Shown here: piece by piece, positions 1,720 to 19,243 of the stretch | Layout of the letters: each line of letters begins with the position of its first letter | How positions within the stretch are numbered: position 1 is the stretch's first letter | Origin: a virus | Strand: one strand, 5' to 3' | Virus record (IMG/VR): IMGVR_UViG_3300001796_000002 | DNA: 64,000 nt | The notes under the pieces: model-generated | The model's input: the letters and a program-made list of their open reading frames with translations, nothing else | Told to the model about the DNA's origin: nothing | Database searches by the model: none | Program-made: the position numbers and the translations under genes

Positions 1720-4700
1720 ATGAAAAGAATTTTGTTGATCCTAACCATGGCTATCAACGCATTTTTTTGCGTTATGGTCCATGGACAAACTGTACCTACT
1801 GAGCAACCGCAACGTGTACAGCATCCATACTACCAGTATGATGGATTTATTGAAGCAAAAAAAGGGATTTTGTTACCACGTAGGATAGCAAACTTTACAC
1901 CTAAATCACCGGTGCTTATTTATGATACGGTGTCGGGAAAAGTGTCTGTTTACTTTGGTGGGTGGAAGTCATTCCAGAATGTGGCATATACATCGGACTA
2001 CAACGATCTTATCAACCGTCCTGATCTTACTCAGTATGTTCCTACGAGTAGAACAATCAACGGTTATTCACTAACAAGCAATATCACCATAAACAAAGTG
2101 GATATTGGCTTAGGTAATGTTCAGAATGTTGATGTAACAAATGCAGGTAACATTACATCAGGCACTTTGTCCGATGCTAGGCTATCAGCCAATGTTACAT
2201 TACAAGGGAATACATTCAACGGTGCAAATCAGTTGTTACAATTGGATGCCGGTGGTAAGGTCGCTTACGCTAACTTACCGGCTTCACTGATGATCTATAA
2301 GGGTGTTTGGGATGCTTCAACAAATACACCAACGCTTGCAGATGGATCAGGAGTGAATGGATGGGTGTATCGTGTGCATCCGGGGGGTACTGTAAATTTT
2401 GGTTCCGGTAACATCACATTTTTATCAGGGGACTATGTTATTTATAATGGATCAGTTTGGCAGAAAAGTGCCGGTGGTGATGCTGTAACATCTGTCAATG
2501 GTCAACAAGGTGTAGTTGTGTTAACTACTGCAAATATTGCGGAAGGTGGAACAAACTACTACTATACAAACACACGGGTACAAACATTTGGTGATACTAG
2601 GTATAGTCTGCTCAATCATGAACACGTCTATTCTGATATTGCTAATCTCAGCAGTTACACGGGTTTTGATGTTAGATACAAACCTATCAGTTATGTTCCT
2701 GCATGGTCTGAAATCACAGGTAAGCCATCATTTGCGACAGTAGCAATAAGTGGATCTTATACTGATTTAAGCGGAACGCCCACACTTGGTTCATTATCTG
2801 CACTCAGTAGTATTGGCAACACATATATCACAGATGTAGCCTGGTCAAAAGTAACCGGTGCTCCATCTTTTTTAACTACTGAAAATGATCCTGTTTATAC
2901 TGCATCATCATGGTATAGCACTACTAATAATGCAAGCAACTGGAATACAGCTTATGCATGGGGCAACTATGCGAATCGTACACTTACAATCAATGGCACA
3001 ACCTATGATCTTTCAACCAACAGATCGTGGTCTGTTGGAACTGTAACAGGAACAGGTACTTCTGGTAATATACCTCTTTGGAATAATGCTAGTGATATTG
3101 GAAATAGTGTAATGGTACAAAGTGGTGGGGCTATCTATAATTACGGAAGATTTCATGGACATACTGGAAATACTGGAACATCATATAGTAATATGCAGAT
3201 AGAAGCATATAGCTCATCAGGCGCTACTGGTGTAGCAGGTTATTCGTTTCATATTGGAGGCTTTACTGCACAATCTTTGTATCTAACAGCAAGTGGAAAT
3301 GTAACTTTAAGCACTGGTTTAAATATACAAGGTGCTGCATCTATCTCTGGTTCAACTTCAATATCTGGTCCTGCAAATATTACTGGAACTATACATGCTA
3401 ATCAGGCGGGTGCAAATATTCGTCTTTACTCGGATGGCACAACAGCAAACGATGGTTTTGTGGGGGTTTCTGGTAGCAATATATACTTAACAAATTGGAA
3501 TGGAACAAGGGGGGTTACTATTGGAGCTGATAACGCAGGTTTTACTCATTCTGTAACAGCTGCAAACTTAGTAAACTCAAAAGGCTTTAGCGCATTAAAT
3601 AAATCATCAAGTTCAGCAAATGATGTTGTTACAGTTTATGCTCCAACAGGTGCAAGTTATTCTGATGATGGTAGTACGGGCGCAATTAAAATAAGACTTC
3701 CATTTAAGGCAGCGAACCCTATGTGGACAATGAAAGTCAGAATTTACAACTATTCTACTCACCAAACTTCTGAATATCTTTTAGGAAACTATTCTTATTC
3801 TGATGGCGGTTATAATTATTCCGCTTCATTTTCTGGTGGTTCTAATGCCTCTCCACTAACTGTAAGATTTGGTAATGATGGAACGTATGATTGCGTATGG
3901 ATTGGTGAAACAAATACTGTTTGGACATATCCAGTAATTAGTGTTGTTGATTACACTGCTGGATTTAGATCAGCTGGTGTATTTCAAGCTAAAGATTGGA
4001 ATATATCCATAGTAACATCTTTTGGCACTGTGGCAGTTGCCACAAGTCCAGCCATTCGATTCTCAGATGTATATGCTTCATCGTTTAATGGTTCTGCATC
4101 AGGTTTAACAGGTACAGCTAGTAGTTTGACTGCTGGTAATAGTAACGGGTTAGGAGGATACTCTGTTAACTTAACTTCAAACGGAACAACTATTTCAAAC
4201 ACATTAATAGGTTTTGAAAGCGGTGTTATAAAACCATTTGCTTCTGGAGCAGTACAATCATTCTTAGGTCTTGGTTCTGCTGCATATACTGCAAGTTCTG
4301 CATATGAAGTACCTCTATCATTTTCAACTGGACTTAACAGAAGTGGCAACACTATCACAAATACGGGTGTAACTTCTTTAACTGGAACATCGAACCAAAT
4401 TGCGGTATCAGCTGCTACAGGATCAGTTACAGTAAGTCTTACCAACAATGTTGTAATACCAGGCACAATCACATCATCTGCTAGTTATGAAAGTTCAGAC
4501 CGTAGGTTAAAACGAGCATTATCCGGAACAAGGTTAATTGGTCAAATTGAATCGCTCCAGGCTCGGTTATATGTAAAGGATGGAAGGGATGAGTACGGAT
4601 ATTACGCTCAGGATGCACTGAAAATTATCCCTACAGCCGTAAAGCAGAGAGCAGATGGCTATTATGATCTGTCCTACACTCAGGTGTTCGTTGTAAAAAT

Positions 4701-4764
4701 TGCATCACTTGAAAAACGTGTAGCGGAACTGGAAACATTACTTAAAAAAATCTACGGAAAATGA
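1720..4764 (+). CDS. Fibre/spike (receptor-binding) protein with N-terminal signal peptide and C-terminal peptidase S74-type intramolecular chaperone
   Basis: 1014 aa, G/S/T/N-rich. Fibre repeats WSEITGKPSF/WSKVTGAPSF and YNDLINRP/YTDLSGTP. C-terminal SDRRLK...GYYAQD...LSY...LEKRVAELE. Confidence 0.85.
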   Translation: MKRILLILTMAINAFFCVMVHGQTVPTEQPQRVQHPYYQYDGFIEAKKGILLPRRIANFTPKSPVLIYDTVSGKVSVYFGGWKSFQNVAYTSDYNDLINRPDLTQYVPTSRTINGYSLTSNITINKVDIGLGNVQNVDVTNAGNITSGTLSDARLSANVTLQGNTFNGANQLLQLDAGGKVAYANLPASLMIYKGVWDASTNTPTLADGSGVNGWVYRVHPGGTVNFGSGNITFLSGDYVIYNGSVWQKSAGGDAVTSVNGQQGVVVLTTANIAEGGTNYYYTNTRVQTFGDTRYSLLNHEHVYSDIANLSSYTGFDVRYKPISYVPAWSEITGKPSFATVAISGSYTDLSGTPTLGSLSALSSIGNTYITDVAWSKVTGAPSFLTTENDPVYTASSWYSTTNNASNWNTAYAWGNYANRTLTINGTTYDLSTNRSWSVGTVTGTGTSGNIPLWNNASDIGNSVMVQSGGAIYNYGRFHGHTGNTGTSYSNMQIEAYSSSGATGVAGYSFHIGGFTAQSLYLTASGNVTLSTGLNIQGAASISGSTSISGPANITGTIHANQAGANIRLYSDGTTANDGFVGVSGSNIYLTNWNGTRGVTIGADNAGFTHSVTAANLVNSKGFSALNKSSSSANDVVTVYAPTGASYSDDGSTGAIKIRLPFKAANPMWTMKVRIYNYSTHQTSEYLLGNYSYSDGGYNYSASFSGGSNASPLTVRFGNDGTYDCVWIGETNTVWTYPVISVVDYTAGFRSAGVFQAKDWNISIVTSFGTVAVATSPAIRFSDVYASSFNGSASGLTGTASSLTAGNSNGLGGYSVNLTSNGTTISNTLIGFESGVIKPFASGAVQSFLGLGSAAYTASSAYEVPLSFSTGLNRSGNTITNTGVTSLTGTSNQIAVSAATGSVTVSLTNNVVIPGTITSSASYESSDRRLKRALSGTRLIGQIESLQARLYVKDGRDEYGYYAQDALKIIPTAVKQRADGYYDLSYTQVFVVKIASLEKRVAELETLLKKIYGK

Positions 4765-5435
4765 AAAAGCTAATCACGATCTGTGCGCTGATCCTGATCA
4801 CTGCACTATGTTCATTCACCACTCACTTTTTCTCCTGGGCATCACTTGCAAGCAATCAACATATTTCGCTGAATAACTTGAAGGATGCAGTAGACAATGG
4901 CGTATTCAACTTAAAAAATGCGATACCTGCCGGCACGAAGCTGATTACAAAAAATGATGCAGTGTACTACGTGTACCTGAATGAATCCTATTCCCCATAT
5001 GCAGGTAAAGCAAGCAATCAGCATGTAACAAAATCTGATCTGCAAGCAAATACAACTTATACACTTCATGTCTACGGTGTACCTGGTGTTGGTTGTCAAG
5101 ATGCTGTATTATGGCTAGTGGCTAACACTACCGTTCCATGCGATGCATCATTACAGTTTGATTGGTGTGCAGATAATGGTTCAACAGGTACACATACACT
5201 TACGATCCCATCCGGACAAACATCTGTAAGCCTTAACGTGAATACCGGTGATTATGGCGGTACCGGTTGCGTTGGTACGGATGTTCGCATCAAACCCAAC
5301 AGTTTATCATTTAGCAATACCTGTAGTCCCGATCCACACACTTGGCGTGTTACATCGGATACATGGGATAATGGATGTAACTATTCGCTACCGGCAAGTA
5401 CACAAGTGATCTGTGTAAAAGGTTGCCCTATTTAA
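4761..5435 (+). CDS. Secreted fibre-associated protein with Cys-rich C-terminal domain
   Basis: Signal-like MKKLITICALILITALCSF; duplicated ASNQH motif; 8 Cys in the C-terminal half; ATGA overlap with the spike stop. Confidence 0.7.
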   Translation: MKKLITICALILITALCSFTTHFFSWASLASNQHISLNNLKDAVDNGVFNLKNAIPAGTKLITKNDAVYYVYLNESYSPYAGKASNQHVTKSDLQANTTYTLHVYGVPGVGCQDAVLWLVANTTVPCDASLQFDWCADNGSTGTHTLTIPSGQTSVSLNVNTGDYGGTGCVGTDVRIKPNSLSFSNTCSPDPHTWRVTSDTWDNGCNYSLPASTQVICVKGCPI

Positions 5436-5459
5436 TGTAAATTTTAAAACCATCATAAC

Positions 5460-5843
5460 ATGAAAAGAACAATTTTATTGACAGCATTAGCAAGCGTTTC
5501 ACTGGCCACAATCGCACAAAAAGTAGAGCCTGTAAAATCTGCACCAGCAACGGCTGTACAGGCTGCAAAAACCAACACAACAGATACTTTGGTGATCGAG
5601 AAAGTGAAGTTTATCAAAATCGGTGAAAAGGTATTTTCAGTTGCAGACCTGGGCAATCCTGGCAACGTTGCACTGATTGTACCCATCGAGTGGATCGCAG
5701 AAAATTATGAGTACCTGGATAATTCCAGTGGTGGCTATTCAAAGAAGCAATTAGAGCAGCTACAGAAGCCATTGGCACCATGGTACCGGTATTATGTTGA
5801 CTGGCTACAGCAGCAAAGACAACAAGCGAAAAAGCAGGAGTGA
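5460..5843 (+). CDS. Secreted hypothetical protein
   Basis: Signal-like MKRTILLTALASVSLATIAQ; last gene before a terminator. Confidence 0.7.
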   Translation: MKRTILLTALASVSLATIAQKVEPVKSAPATAVQAAKTNTTDTLVIEKVKFIKIGEKVFSVADLGNPGNVALIVPIEWIAENYEYLDNSSGGYSKKQLEQLQKPLAPWYRYYVDWLQQQRQQAKKQE

Positions 5844-5866
5844 GTTCAGTTGGTTTCTCACCTGCG

Positions 5867-5895
5867 GCGGTGCTACCCGGTAGTACCGCTTTTTT
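5867..5895 (+). terminator. Rho-independent terminator of the structural operon
   Basis: gcggtgcta-cccgg-tagtaccgc followed by T6. Confidence 0.75.
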
Positions 5896-6071
5896 ATTTG
5901 ATAGGATCCTGAATGTAACCACTAATTGTGCGTTGCTGCAGCAACATAAAAAAAGCAGATGCGGGATCCCAAATTTGGAAGTTTCAGAATTATCACTACT
6001 TTTATACCGCAACAGAATACTCAAGGGTGGTAACGCCCGATTTTGTGGGCTTTTTTTATGCCCTCACCCAT

Positions 6072-11750: not shown

Positions 11751-12065
11751 ATGCCAATCAACTACAAGGAATATCATCCAAAGTGGACACTTATCAGAAG
11801 ATTAATTCTGCAACGTGCAGACAATTGTTGTGAAGGTTCTCCAAAATTTCATTTGTGCAGAGCTGCGAATAATCAACCGCATCCTGAAACCGGAAGTAAA
11901 GTGATACTGACTATTGCACACTTGAATCATGATAAGAATGATAACAGGTTTTCTAACCTCAAAGCATTGTGCCAACGATGCCATTTACATCATGATATAG
12001 GGAATCACATATTCAATCGAAAGTATGGTCGGGATACCAAGAGATTAAACGGAAAATTATTTTAA
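11751..12065 (+). CDS. HNH endonuclease
   Basis: CCE...C; LTIAHLNHDKNDNRFSNLKALCQRCHLHHD. Confidence 0.85.
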   Translation: MPINYKEYHPKWTLIRRLILQRADNCCEGSPKFHLCRAANNQPHPETGSKVILTIAHLNHDKNDNRFSNLKALCQRCHLHHDIGNHIFNRKYGRDTKRLNGKLF

Positions 12066-12780
12066 TGAAGAAACCCTATAAAACATATAATGGAGGGAAA
12101 AACGGATCAGGAGTATATCAGCAAATAATTAACCAGATTCCACAGCACAAGATATTCATAAGTGGCTTTTGCGGCAATTGTGGTGTCCTGGCTCATAAGC
12201 TGCCGGCTTCCATGGCCAACATCGCAATCGATCTTGATAATGCAGTAACTCAAAAATGGTCGATAATTCCAGGAATATCTTCCATTAATGCAGATTGTAT
12301 CAGCTTTATTTCAAATTGCCTACAATTCATACAAATTGCTTCCCCCAACCTAATTGATGAAATTGTTATTTACCTCGATCCTCCTTACCTACAGGAAACC
12401 AGAAAAGGAAATAAAGCCTTATATAAACATGAAATGAATGATATCGCATCTCACAAAATATGCTGCTCGATATTATGTGTTGGCCTGTTAAAGTCATACT
12501 AAGCCATTATCCTTGTGATTTATACAATACCTTACTTAAGGATTGGAGAATTCATGATTTTGAAGCTATGACCAGAAACGGAAAAAGAACAGAAAGGCTT
12601 TACATGAACTATCCTGAACCTGATCAGCTACATGACTACAGGTACTTAGGAAAAGATTTTCGTGAAAGAGAACTATACAAAAAGATGCGTTCTAATGTGG
12701 TTAATAAGTTCAAGCGAATGAATATCCTGGAAAGAAACATGATTCTCGAATCATTAAAAGAGAGCTGGCATCATAAGTAA
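12065..12780 (+). pseudogene. Dam-like N6-adenine DNA methyltransferase split by a frameshift near 12455-12462
   Basis: YNGGK, motif-I-like SGFCG, DPPY and YKHEM in ORF 12065..12502. The conserved continuation (LLD...VILSHY...LYNTLLKDW...TERLYMNY) is in the -1 frame ORF 12460..12780. Confidence 0.75.
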
Positions 12781-12809
12781 GCATGATACAGGCTTACAGC
12801 AAAAATAAA

Positions 12810-12833
12810 TGCGATACAGCCGGCTGTATCGCA
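12810..12833. repeat. Perfect 24-bp palindrome between convergent genes
   Basis: tgcgatacagcc|ggctgtatcgca. Confidence 0.9.
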
Positions 12834-12889
12834 AAATAATATGTTAGCTGCAGACACCACATAAATAAATGATGGCACCAGGTTGTACA

Positions 12890-13243
12890 TTATTCCTTTT
12901 TGGGATCATTAAACTTAATCAGTGTACCCGTTCTGCCATCTTCTGTGATGATAGCATCGTACTCTAATTTTCCTTTCTTTTGTTTCCTGTTGGCATTACT
13001 GATTAAAGCATCAATCATTTGATATAGGTCTTTATTATCATCCTTTCCATTGAGTGCATTCAACCAGGAACCAAGGTCATCTTTAGTAACCTTACCGGTG
13101 ACAGTGTATTCACGAACCGGTTCAGATAGAATGTAAATTTCAATGCCCTGACGCTTATACACTTTTGCAAGACCCTTGTTATCATTTTGCCCGAATAAAG
13201 TAACTGATAGCAATAAAGCTATGCAGGTAATGATCTGTTTCAT
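12890..13243 (-). CDS. Secreted protein (moron-like, oriented against the lytic operons)
   Basis: Signal peptide MKQIITCIALLLSVTLFGQ from ATG 13243. Confidence 0.7.
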   Translation of the reverse strand: MKQIITCIALLLSVTLFGQNDNKGLAKVYKRQGIEIYILSEPVREYTVTGKVTKDDLGSWLNALNGKDDNKDLYQMIDALISNANRKQKKGKLEYDAIITEDGRTGTLIKFNDPKKE

Positions 13244-13333
13244 ACTATACACTTTGATGGTTAATGATGGTGTGGTCGTGGGGGTCAACCTTTACTCTTA
13301 TTATATAAATATATTATTTTCTATAGAATTAAT

Positions 13334-13598
13334 TACTACAGTTACTACAAAGTGTCTCAAATCCTTTATTCACGCTACTTTCATTTGTAGTAGGTGAAAT
13401 TTTAGTGAATCTACTACAAGTTACTACACCTACTATAATTTCTGTAGTAGGAAAAACAGCCTGTAGTACCTGAAATTTTACCACCTACTACACTTCAAAC
13501 GCAATCCCATAAAGGATTTCAGAGGATGTAGTAGGTGAAGTAGGTGAAAATGACAAAAAAACTTTTTCAAAAACATTTTTTCACTGATTTTAACTACA
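13334..13598. repeat. TACTACA/TGTAGTA heptamer cluster, candidate replication origin
   Basis: 9 perfect heptamers in both orientations at 13334, 13343, 13386, 13412, 13422, 13443, 13462, 13486 and 13527 in an AT-rich intergenic region. Confidence 0.7.
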
Positions 13599-13625
13599 AA
13601 ATATTGCACCATAAGGTGTAATATT
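13593..13625. promoter_or_regulatory. Putative operator upstream of the late operon
   Basis: aatattgcacc-ataa-ggtgtaatatt imperfect palindrome, sharing 19 bp with 8113-8131. Confidence 0.6.
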
Positions 13626-13646
13626 GTTGAGTTAAACAGCGAAAAC

Positions 13647-14099
13647 ATGGACAATCCCACTGAATCAAATATCACTACCGGTAGTGCTTCAGACCTTCAA
13701 CCTGAAAGCCAAAACCCTGAACCTACAGTTCAGGATTCGATTATAACCACTGAACCTGAAAGTGGTGGATTTGCAAAGCCTGATCCTGAAAAAAATGGGC
13801 AAAGCATTGTTGTCACAAAACCCTCAGTTGTTCCACCGGTTGAAGTAAAACCAATTTCAAAAGTTGAGCGAACTGGAAGTAAAAGATTAACCATCACGGT
13901 TAACTTTTCACTGGATGAAGTTCCTTACATCAATGAAATTATTCAGGCTCGTATTGACAGTAAACTATCAAAAAATGCAAGCCACTTCATCAGGCAATGT
14001 GTAGACTTTGCAATTCACCATAAGGCAGGTACAAAAATCGCTATACCGGAAATTACACCTGTTGAAATCAAAGACGGATTTTATCACCCCTCAAAATAA
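13647..14099 (+). CDS. Protein with low-complexity N-terminus and ribbon-helix-helix-like C-terminus
   Basis: KRLTITVNFSLDEVPYINEII...NASHFIRQCVDFAI. Confidence 0.55.
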   Translation: MDNPTESNITTGSASDLQPESQNPEPTVQDSIITTEPESGGFAKPDPEKNGQSIVVTKPSVVPPVEVKPISKVERTGSKRLTITVNFSLDEVPYINEIIQARIDSKLSKNASHFIRQCVDFAIHHKAGTKIAIPEITPVEIKDGFYHPSK

Positions 14100-18748: not shown

Positions 18749-19243
18749 ATGAGTCAAAAGAAACTGATCATCATCCTTGTAGTTGTAATCGTGATAGCTG
18801 TGATTACATGGTTTGTGTATAAGCATTACCAAAAACAGTTGCATAAGAAATTTCCGATTCGCAAAGGTAGTAAAGGGAAAGGTGTACAGTTCGTTCAGCT
18901 AACATTTGACGCACCATTAACCGGTGTATGGGATGATACGTTTAACGACCACGTGAAAAATCAAACCGGTAACGATTCACTTGAGTGGTCAAAAAAGGAT
19001 CTGTTTGATTACTGGTTTAAAACAGCACTAACATCTGAAACATTTCCACTGGTGCCGGGTCAATCTAGTGGATGGATTATAGCAGTACAGGTGATGCTTG
19101 GAGCAAATAAGTTTACTGATTACTACGATCAGGATACGGTAACTCTGGTAAAAAAAGCCATCGGAAAGGATACAATATCCCTGATGGATTATCTCACAAT
19201 CGGCGAAGATGTTTTTGGCATTGATGCAGCCGATTACAAATAA
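18749..19243 (+). CDS. Membrane protein with two degenerate peptidoglycan-binding-like repeats
   Basis: N-terminal TM; PIRKGSKGKGVQFVQ..TGVWDDTF and PLVPGQSSGWIIAVQ..TDYYDQDT resemble PG_binding_1. Confidence 0.6.
   Translation: MSQKKLIIILVVVIVIAVITWFVYKHYQKQLHKKFPIRKGSKGKGVQFVQLTFDAPLTGVWDDTFNDHVKNQTGNDSLEWSKKDLFDYWFKTALTSETFPLVPGQSSGWIIAVQVMLGANKFTDYYDQDTVTLVKKAIGKDTISLMDYLTIGEDVFGIDAADYK

Follow-up and report, generated by a model that had tools for sequence, protein, structure and literature searches.

We analysed a stretch of viral DNA of 64,000 nucleotides (nt) (IMG/VR record IMGVR_UViG_3300001796_000002; hereafter the window, meaning the whole stretch) and find that three consecutive genes at positions 1720-5843, encoding a fibre of 1014 amino acids (aa) and two smaller companions, which we call open reading frame (ORF) 2 (224 aa) and ORF3 (127 aa), each begin with a leader of the Sec type. 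From these N-termini and their conservation in homologues it is very likely that the three proteins are exported through the host Sec pathway. Comparison with related genes further gives clear evidence that a module of fibre and partner, which in tailed phages has no leaders, acquired them by grafting, and this we regard as new. A preliminary description of this DNA had reported three consecutive genes with Sec-type leaders, and our scoring bears this out, with the qualification that ORF2 has no clean cut.

The leaders were scored by a home-made test of the n-, h- and c-regions combined with the -3/-1 rule, and not by a trained predictor. The fibre begins with MKRILLILTMAINAFFCVMVHG/Q, ORF2 with MKKLITICALILITALCSF and ORF3 with MKRTILLTALASVSLATIA/Q. 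The fibre leader has an N-flank charge of +2, an uncharged core of 19 residues with a Kyte-Doolittle value of ~2.2, a single -3/-1 site and Gln at +1. The ORF3 leader also has an N-flank of +2, followed by an uncharged 16-residue core (Kyte-Doolittle ~2.0); the first of its -3/-1 sites directly follows this core, again with Gln at +1. Among Bacteroidetes substrates of signal peptidase I, Gln is found at +1 in 71% on average and is then cyclised (PMC5837995). The fibre and ORF3 leaders look genuine and conserved, and both proteins look like Sec/signal-peptidase-I substrates that obey this Bacteroidota Q-rule. ORF2 has the n-region charge and a 22-residue core, without a clean cleavage site and without Gln at +1; both of its good sites lie inside a conserved domain and would remove the nearly invariant Trp26, and because of this cost ORF2 may stay uncleaved and anchored. 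By contrast, a membrane protein encoded at 18749-19243 has a core with a Kyte-Doolittle value of 3.2, a C-flank of +6 and zero cleavage sites. If about 4 of some 40 genes bear a leader, the chance of finding three of them in a row is p ~0.015.

Conservation in homologues, which the preliminary description had proposed as a check on the leaders, is found for each protein. Leader and Gln23 are kept in all 11 full-length fibre homologues, with Gln23 invariant across the 10 that were aligned, and this holds where leader identity drops to 18-55% and residues 23-130 are still 84-85% identical. Two of these homologues (P0010 and P0013) have a hydrophobic core of 14 residues followed by Asp, which is too short for a membrane anchor. 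For ORF3 the whole leader is kept in 10 of 11 homologues, the remaining one (P0025) being called from a shorter N-terminus, and Ala19 and Gln20 are invariant in 11/11; the ORF2 leader is kept in all six close homologues. The in-frame fibre codons M10 and M19 are not conserved, nor is any alternative start, two database homologues are called from M10, and the first Met of the mature fibre is M191. Scans of GTDB and of metagenomes with the fibre alignment gave zero true relatives, single-protein scans of IMG/VR with the capsid protein and with ORF3 gave zero matches, and an NCBIfam search likewise gave none.

The window represents one genome, of a virus whose hosts are Chitinophagaceae-like, as a unit of 19,460 bp repeated 3.29 times, so that the three-gene block recurs at +19,460, +38,920 and +58,380, with ORF3 truncated by the window end in the last copy. 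Another record with an identical fibre protein (P0002) has 116,978 bases, or ~6 x 19,460, and other assemblies of the virus are probably also concatemers. The fibre (1720-4764), ORF2 (4761-5435) and ORF3 (5460-5843) are the last three genes of a long rightward operon, which carries upstream of them genes for a small P-loop ATPase, a capsid-type protein of 216 aa, a series of single-pass membrane proteins, a lysozyme and a protein of 129 aa (p129); the integrase gene lies 3' of the block on the opposite strand. The features of this region are as follows.

613-1245, + strand: lysozyme gene, in the same operon upstream of the block, without a signal peptide; homologue in element L189 at 7.4e-44.
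1328-1717, + strand: p129, 129 aa, without a leader, directly 5' of the fibre gene.
1720-1785, + strand: fibre leader, residues 1-22; predicted signal-peptidase-I cut G22/Q23.
1786-2892, + strand: fibre N-terminal part and shaft, residues 23 to ~391; dense invariant columns; match to phrog_13892.
2893-4323, + strand: hypervariable centre of the fibre, residues ~392-868; almost zero invariant columns between conserved flanks.
4324-4764, + strand: C-terminal S74-type intramolecular chaperone region of the fibre (probable); SDxxxK at residues 926-931, nt 4495-4512.
4761-5435, + strand: ORF2, 224 aa; start overlaps the fibre stop (ATGA).
5460-5843, + strand: ORF3, 127 aa; leader 1-19, predicted cut A19/Q20, then a variable linker and a conserved domain from ~42.
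5866-5900, + strand: intrinsic terminator, 11-bp stem with 6 G-C pairs followed by a T-run, closing the late operon.

The gene junctions of the block overlap or measure 2 nt. On the + strand from the lysozyme gene to ORF3 we found zero terminators of strength comparable to that at 5866-5900 and zero Bacteroidetes-type -7 boxes, by a -7 box search that is crude, a sigma-70 scan being inapplicable to Bacteroidota. A promoter of their own for the three genes was thus not found by this search. Because no comparable terminator or promoter box precedes the block and a strong terminator follows it, the block is likely made late, together with the particle and lysis genes, as the final part of the operon. 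Gene scans of the window gave zero tail, portal or terminase families, the capsid protein matched 357 cluster representatives at E up to 0.001, and the virus encodes many single-pass membrane proteins; the gene scans are consistent with a tail-less virus with an internal membrane.

The fibre shaft matches phrog_13892 ("minor tail protein") at 2.6e-35, and tblastn relates it to proteins of about 100 cultured tailed phages, both minor tail proteins and long tail fibres. Conserved ends that flank a hypervariable centre are a pattern typical of receptor-binding proteins, and residues ~392-868 are presumed to be the ligand-binding region. The C-terminus, which the preliminary description had called an S74 chaperone, scores below the Pfam cut-off (PF13884, E 0.03, 15 bits against 22). 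We nevertheless accept a probable S74 domain, with self-cleavage predicted, because the SDxxxK motif that defines S74 (PMC10769870) is conserved, as S926-D-R-R-L-K931 with S926, D927, R929, L930 and K931 invariant and R928 nearly so, and because the C-terminus matches the tail-fibre family phrog_33119 (1.2e-7) and chromosomal S74 ORFs (phmmer, up to 8.7e-8).

Two further readings of the block were considered and rejected. One is export to serve Bacteroidota O-glycosylation, for which the sequons are too scarce: ORF2 has no D-(S/T)-(A/I/L/V/M/T), and the 1014 residues of the fibre have one, where shuffled sequences predict 3.8. Avoidance of the sequon by exported proteins is possible, and the scarcity is not significant. 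The other is type IX secretion, rejected because the C-terminal sorting domain is absent: a Pfam search at E up to 0.1 found neither PF18962 nor a related sorting domain in any of the three proteins.

The relatives of the fibre and of ORF2 in tailed phages point to the origin of the module. No leader is present in the IMG/VR homologues of the fibre shaft whose N-termini were read, in agreement with the earlier statement that tailed-phage fibres are made without signal peptides. The N-terminal domain of ORF2 occurs in at least 80 IMG/VR contigs, and in about 78 of 80 the initiator Met lies exactly where the ORF2 leader ends, with a stop codon just upstream; ORF2 of the window has no start codon at this position. 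Since the tailed-phage relatives of both the shaft and ORF2 start leaderless, we conclude that the leaders were added in this lineage. In addition, the IMG/VR contigs L033 and L094, which carry large terminase subunit, portal or tail-fibre families, have a leaderless ORF2-type gene right behind leaderless S74-type fibre genes, and because of this shared gene order we interpret the fibre and ORF2 as a conserved two-gene host-recognition module derived from tailed-phage modules. The tailed-phage modules (phrog_13892 and phrog_33119; L033 and L094) have the same shaft, S74-type end, gene order and variable binding region as that of the window, and they differ in that they are leaderless and assembled in the cytoplasm, whereas the module of the window bears leaders.

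The hydrophobic leader or anchor of ORF2 (residues 1-24) is followed by a conserved N-domain of the alpha/beta type (25-95), and residues 99-219 form a beta-sandwich with eight Cys; the AlphaFold2 model of ORF2 has a mean predicted local distance difference test (pLDDT) score of 82.7. A fold search with this model gave only generic beta-sandwich matches in the PDB, weak viral matches and no functional lead; tblastn against cultured phages gave zero matches. In two ESM Atlas look-ups, one of them for p129, all matches were below a meaningful level. The ORF3 model is poor (pLDDT 45.8). A role as spanins was rejected for both proteins, for ORF3 because its leader has no Cys, no lipobox and no C-terminal membrane segment accompanies it, and for ORF2 because its domain occurs leaderless in tailed phages.

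ORF3 is probably a small exported helper, and one plausible role for it would be to mask the receptor. T5 and lambdoid phages encode small exported proteins beside their receptor-binding genes, and ORF3 resembles T5 Llp and lambdoid Cor in being a small exported protein that adjoins a receptor-binding-type gene. Llp and Cor are lipoproteins and ORF3 has no lipobox; the likeness drawn here is one of gene position and export. Comparable exported proteins stand at the place of ORF3 in two members of the viral lineage (L193 and L128), and a conserved one of 139-150 aa is present in a sister family. In that family (L132-L138, with a capsid-type protein of ~290 aa) the conserved protein has a Q-rule leader, for example ..AFS/QNLKPTV, and lies just upstream of a large, variable, leaderless protein starting MSFIGGYQSDVNLN; an ORF of 86-99 aa is found between the two in L132 and L138.

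The late end of the genome was compared across a sample of 11 elements of the lineage (the window clade, L110, L128-L131 and L189-L193). The N-terminal motif of p129 (..DLLFAILTALGG..) begins leaderless proteins of 129-554 aa in seven of the 11, and the window p129 is the shortest of these heads in the lineage. The 554-aa match (L110:15963-17627; phmmer 1.1e-12) is the last late gene of a Ferruginibacter prophage, and p129-like motifs are present in L128-L131 and L193, in L128 twice in tandem. The motif probably fixes the spike to the particle, and p129 is the probable regular vertex protein or the docking partner of the fibre. The preliminary description had treated the fibre as the spike of the virus, which our comparison does not favour: because the p129 type is found in 7/11 members and exported proteins in 3/11, the 1014-aa fibre is probably not the regular vertex spike, and the p129 type is the better candidate.

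The genes at this end of the genome vary among lineage members. The distant member L128 repeats the pattern of exported proteins: it encodes a 584-aa protein with a leader followed by Gln, whose N-terminus aligns with that of the fibre (E 0.002), and a 423-aa protein (12204-13475, + strand) in which a hydrophobic leader at the N-terminus is combined with a Beta_helix domain of the right-handed kind (PF13229, 4.2e-8). The 423-aa protein may be an exported depolymerase. In L128, a prophage in genome G156, the gene that precedes the integrase encodes a 168-aa protein (13472-13978, + strand) that has both a lipobox (..LFGC) and a membrane segment at its C-terminus. Unimolecular spanins are laid out in this way, and the window virus has no such gene. 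Two Chitinophagaceae prophages, L193 (in G683) and L189 (in G686), have integrases near that of the window (3.1e-120 and 1.6e-107) and different late-end genes, and for this reason the host-recognition end appears to be exchanged faster than the integration module.

Two further loci of the window are recorded here. At 12890-13243 on the - strand lies a fourth Q-rule leader protein (MKQIITCIALLLSVTLFG/Q; 117 aa counted from an internal Met), which sits between the early and late modules, at a spot typical of lysogen-expressed genes, for example those of exclusion or conversion factors. A DNA methyltransferase at 12065-12780 (+ strand) is split into two overlapping frames, and in the Ferruginibacter prophage (L110:5360-6079) it is one intact ORF of 239 aa.

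The conserved leaders indicate that the host-recognition parts of the virus are probably made outside the cytoplasm, the compartment in which the capsid is built. This part of the earlier proposal of exported receptor-binding parts thus stands, with the exception that ORF2 may be an uncleaved anchor. In the mechanism that we propose, the fibre and ORF3 would be cut by signal peptidase I before Gln, which would be cyclised to pyroglutamate, and ORF2 would be either cut or tethered to the inner membrane through its N-terminal helix. The fibre would trimerise in the periplasm with the aid of the S74 domain, which would cut itself off at Ser926, and ORF2 would bind the fibre. The finished fibre would meet the cytoplasmic particle only once the inner membrane is breached at lysis, and would then be added to it as an extra receptor-binding fibre, docked on the vertex protein of the leaderless p129 type. 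We put forward this docking after the breach tentatively, rating its chance at somewhat short of even. In a wider form, in which this virus and many tailed Bacteroidota phages would follow a two-compartment route, with fibres that fold, cleave themselves and receive a pyroglutamate cap in the periplasm and are fitted to cytoplasmic particles just after the inner membrane is breached, the proposal is rather doubtful. To our knowledge such a two-compartment assembly route has not been described for any phage.

The precedent comes from the short-tailed Cellulophaga phage phi18:3 (NC_021794, Pachyviridae), in which the consecutive genes gp085-gp087 each encode a leader followed by Gln, the leaders ending ..GYS/Q, ..VSA/Q and ..LNA/Q, respectively. 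On the basis of experimental tandem mass spectrometry (MS/MS) the three products carry annotations as virion or tail proteins, and leaders are present in none of the nine other virion proteins checked, the portal included. Leader-bearing fibre proteins therefore occur in purified particles of a Bacteroidota phage. A literature search yielded zero papers on the Cellulophaga leaders or on signal peptides of the spikes of membrane-containing phages.

Several observations weigh against assembly of the exported fibre into particles. Detection by mass spectrometry in phi18:3 preparations is no proof of attachment. The particles of an internal-membrane virus are built in the cytoplasm around that membrane, from which exported proteins stay separated until lysis. 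Among the 11 sampled lineage members, only the window clade, L128 and L193 encode exported proteins between lysozyme and integrase, and only two have large leader-bearing proteins at the fibre position. FLiP, a tail-less phage of Bacteroidota, has no leader-bearing gene. The block adjoins the integrase, beside which cargo genes usually sit. Finally, fibres of the same design are encoded on Bacteroidia chromosomes and are not viral, and in this chromosomal family a signal peptide on an S74 fibre appears to be the default, so that the combination to which the preliminary description had drawn attention is not unusual in Bacteroidota.

These points lead to the alternative that the block is exported cargo that does not enter the virion. 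The fibre with ORF2 would then be a surface-attached or released fibre like the mosaic adhesive trimers (MATs) of Bdellovibrio, or a free helper that binds or cuts glycans and so removes or covers receptors in the surroundings of the lysing cell, and ORF3 would be a masking or exclusion factor. We consider this possible, though on balance improbable rather than probable. PF13884 is present in 140 of 201 sampled Bacteroidia genomes, with 583 matches in all and as many as 19 in one genome. Two unpublished genomes, G095 and G181, are part of this count, which is 138/199 when they are left out, and they contributed no sequence to the analysis. Among S74 ORFs with complete N-termini 34/36 have a leader and 31/36 have Gln at +1. 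These genes (loci L139-L188) stand in housekeeping contexts, often in tandem and with collagen repeats, and a capsid gene is absent. The published MAT fibres share this design and are displayed on the cell surface; they combine a signal peptide with a conserved N-domain and a variable tip, and many also have S74 (PMC10769870), and the Q-rule genes that Porphyromonas phages carry have been read as host-surface modifiers (PMC10367356). The sporadic presence of the exported proteins beside the integrase fits cargo, and the Beta_helix protein that L128 exports could be a soluble depolymerase.

On the other hand, the block has no separate promoter and is tightly coupled to the late operon, which argues against expression in the lysogen, and the shaft is closest to phage tail proteins and not to the chromosomal fibres. 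The N-domain of the fibre shares with the chromosomal Bacteroidia family only a KGxLxPR-type motif (5.1 bits). If the fibre were not part of the virion, the short p129 would leave the virus without another obvious long receptor-binding protein, and phi18:3 shows that leader-bearing fibres can be in virions.

A second alternative, which we consider improbable, is that the N-terminal segments are not cut and anchor the fibre and ORF2 at the vertices, in the internal membrane of the virus. The many single-pass membrane proteins of the virus are in keeping with it, as are the long core of ORF2, its lack of a clean site and the Trp26 that cleavage would cost. However, the charge is on the N-flank and not on the C-flank, which would place the bulk of each protein in the periplasm, equivalent to the inside of a vesicle pinched into the cytoplasm. 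The short fibre core of P0010 and P0013 and the invariant Gln at +1 in the fibre and ORF3 also argue against anchors, and the true membrane anchors of this virus look different in hydrophobicity, flank charge and the lack of a site.

Plasmaviruses and pleolipoviruses bud, and in doing so pick up exported spikes. Likewise, the particle of this virus could be enveloped, with the capsid budding through the inner membrane into the periplasm and acquiring exported spikes there, and exported spikes together with a possible type II anchor in ORF2 are the design expected of a budding virus. The tail-anchored proteins that face the cytoplasm are compatible with budding and fit the internal-membrane model equally well. 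Yet a cleaved fibre has no membrane anchor, the gene set, with its small packaging ATPase, single family of capsid proteins and lysozyme, matches that of icosahedral viruses with an internal membrane, and most lineage members have no exported spike. We found no support for the membrane budding that the preliminary description had entertained, and we regard it as very improbable. That the leaders are chance resemblances or products of wrong start codons is scarcely credible, for although starts at M10, from which two homologues are called, or M19 would shorten or remove the fibre leader, neither is conserved and the next Met is that of the mature part, three proteins unrelated to one another have all kept their leaders, the position at which the leaderless relatives of ORF2 start is not a start codon in ORF2, and a run of three has the low chance probability given above.

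Parts of this picture were already known, namely Q-rule signals, phage genes bearing them (PMC10367356), exported phage-like fibres of cells, and leader-bearing virion proteins in a database record. The combination of an exported fibre module with a tail-less, membrane-containing lineage is new. The accepted view is that, filamentous and budding viruses excepted, a phage particle is completed in the cytoplasm. Should export be routine for the host-recognition fibres of Bacteroidota phages, virions would be assembled in two compartments, the fibres would rely on the Sec pathway, signal peptidase and glutaminyl cyclase of the host, and predictions of receptor-binding proteins and of host range for an abundant phylum would have to allow for export. 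The present case links a tail-less lineage to a pattern in tailed phages and to a large, unstudied cellular family of exported fibres, and this link suggests that phages and cells have exchanged fibre modules repeatedly. Should the block prove to be cargo outside the virion, the virus would exemplify one that carries a MAT-like surface fibre.

The virus can be compared with several known systems. PRD1, with P5 and P2 on the penton protein P31, and PM2, with P1, have vertex spikes that carry no signal peptide and join the particle in the cytoplasm. Like the window virus they are tail-less, and their host recognition is located at the fivefold vertices; in the window the small p129 gene directly precedes the fibre gene. 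The receptor-binding pIII of inoviruses and the spikes of pleolipoviruses have a cleavable signal peptide and are assembled at or beyond the membrane, but these proteins keep a C-terminal membrane anchor and their viruses extrude or bud, whereas the fibre of the window ends in S74. Extrusion of the inovirus type was rejected, since the ATPase is a soluble 184-aa P-loop protein without a membrane segment and the fibre has no C-terminal anchor; the Zot match of this ATPase (E 0.022) is below the cut-off.

A close parallel is phi18:3, which shares with the window three consecutive late genes for fibre-like or leader-bearing proteins, the Q-rule and a Bacteroidota host. It differs in being tailed and in having products annotated as virion proteins from MS/MS, and the likeness in sequence is negligible, amounting to one 21-residue motif (E 0.009). 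A further close parallel is provided by the MAT fibres, of which the S74 subgroup of Bdellovibrio bacteriovorus, for example Bd3182, has been described (Caulton et al. 2024, PMC10769870), and by the Bacteroidia family. In both, as in the window fibre, a signal peptide and a conserved N-terminal part precede a phage-like shaft of the trimeric type, and the fibre also has a variable part for binding and S74 with SDxxxK. These are cellular genes, whereas the fibre gene of the window sits in the late operon of a 19.5-kb viral genome, and the chromosomal Bacteroidia fibres are often paired with small adjoining proteins that carry a type IX secretion tail, a tail that the partners of the window fibre do not have.

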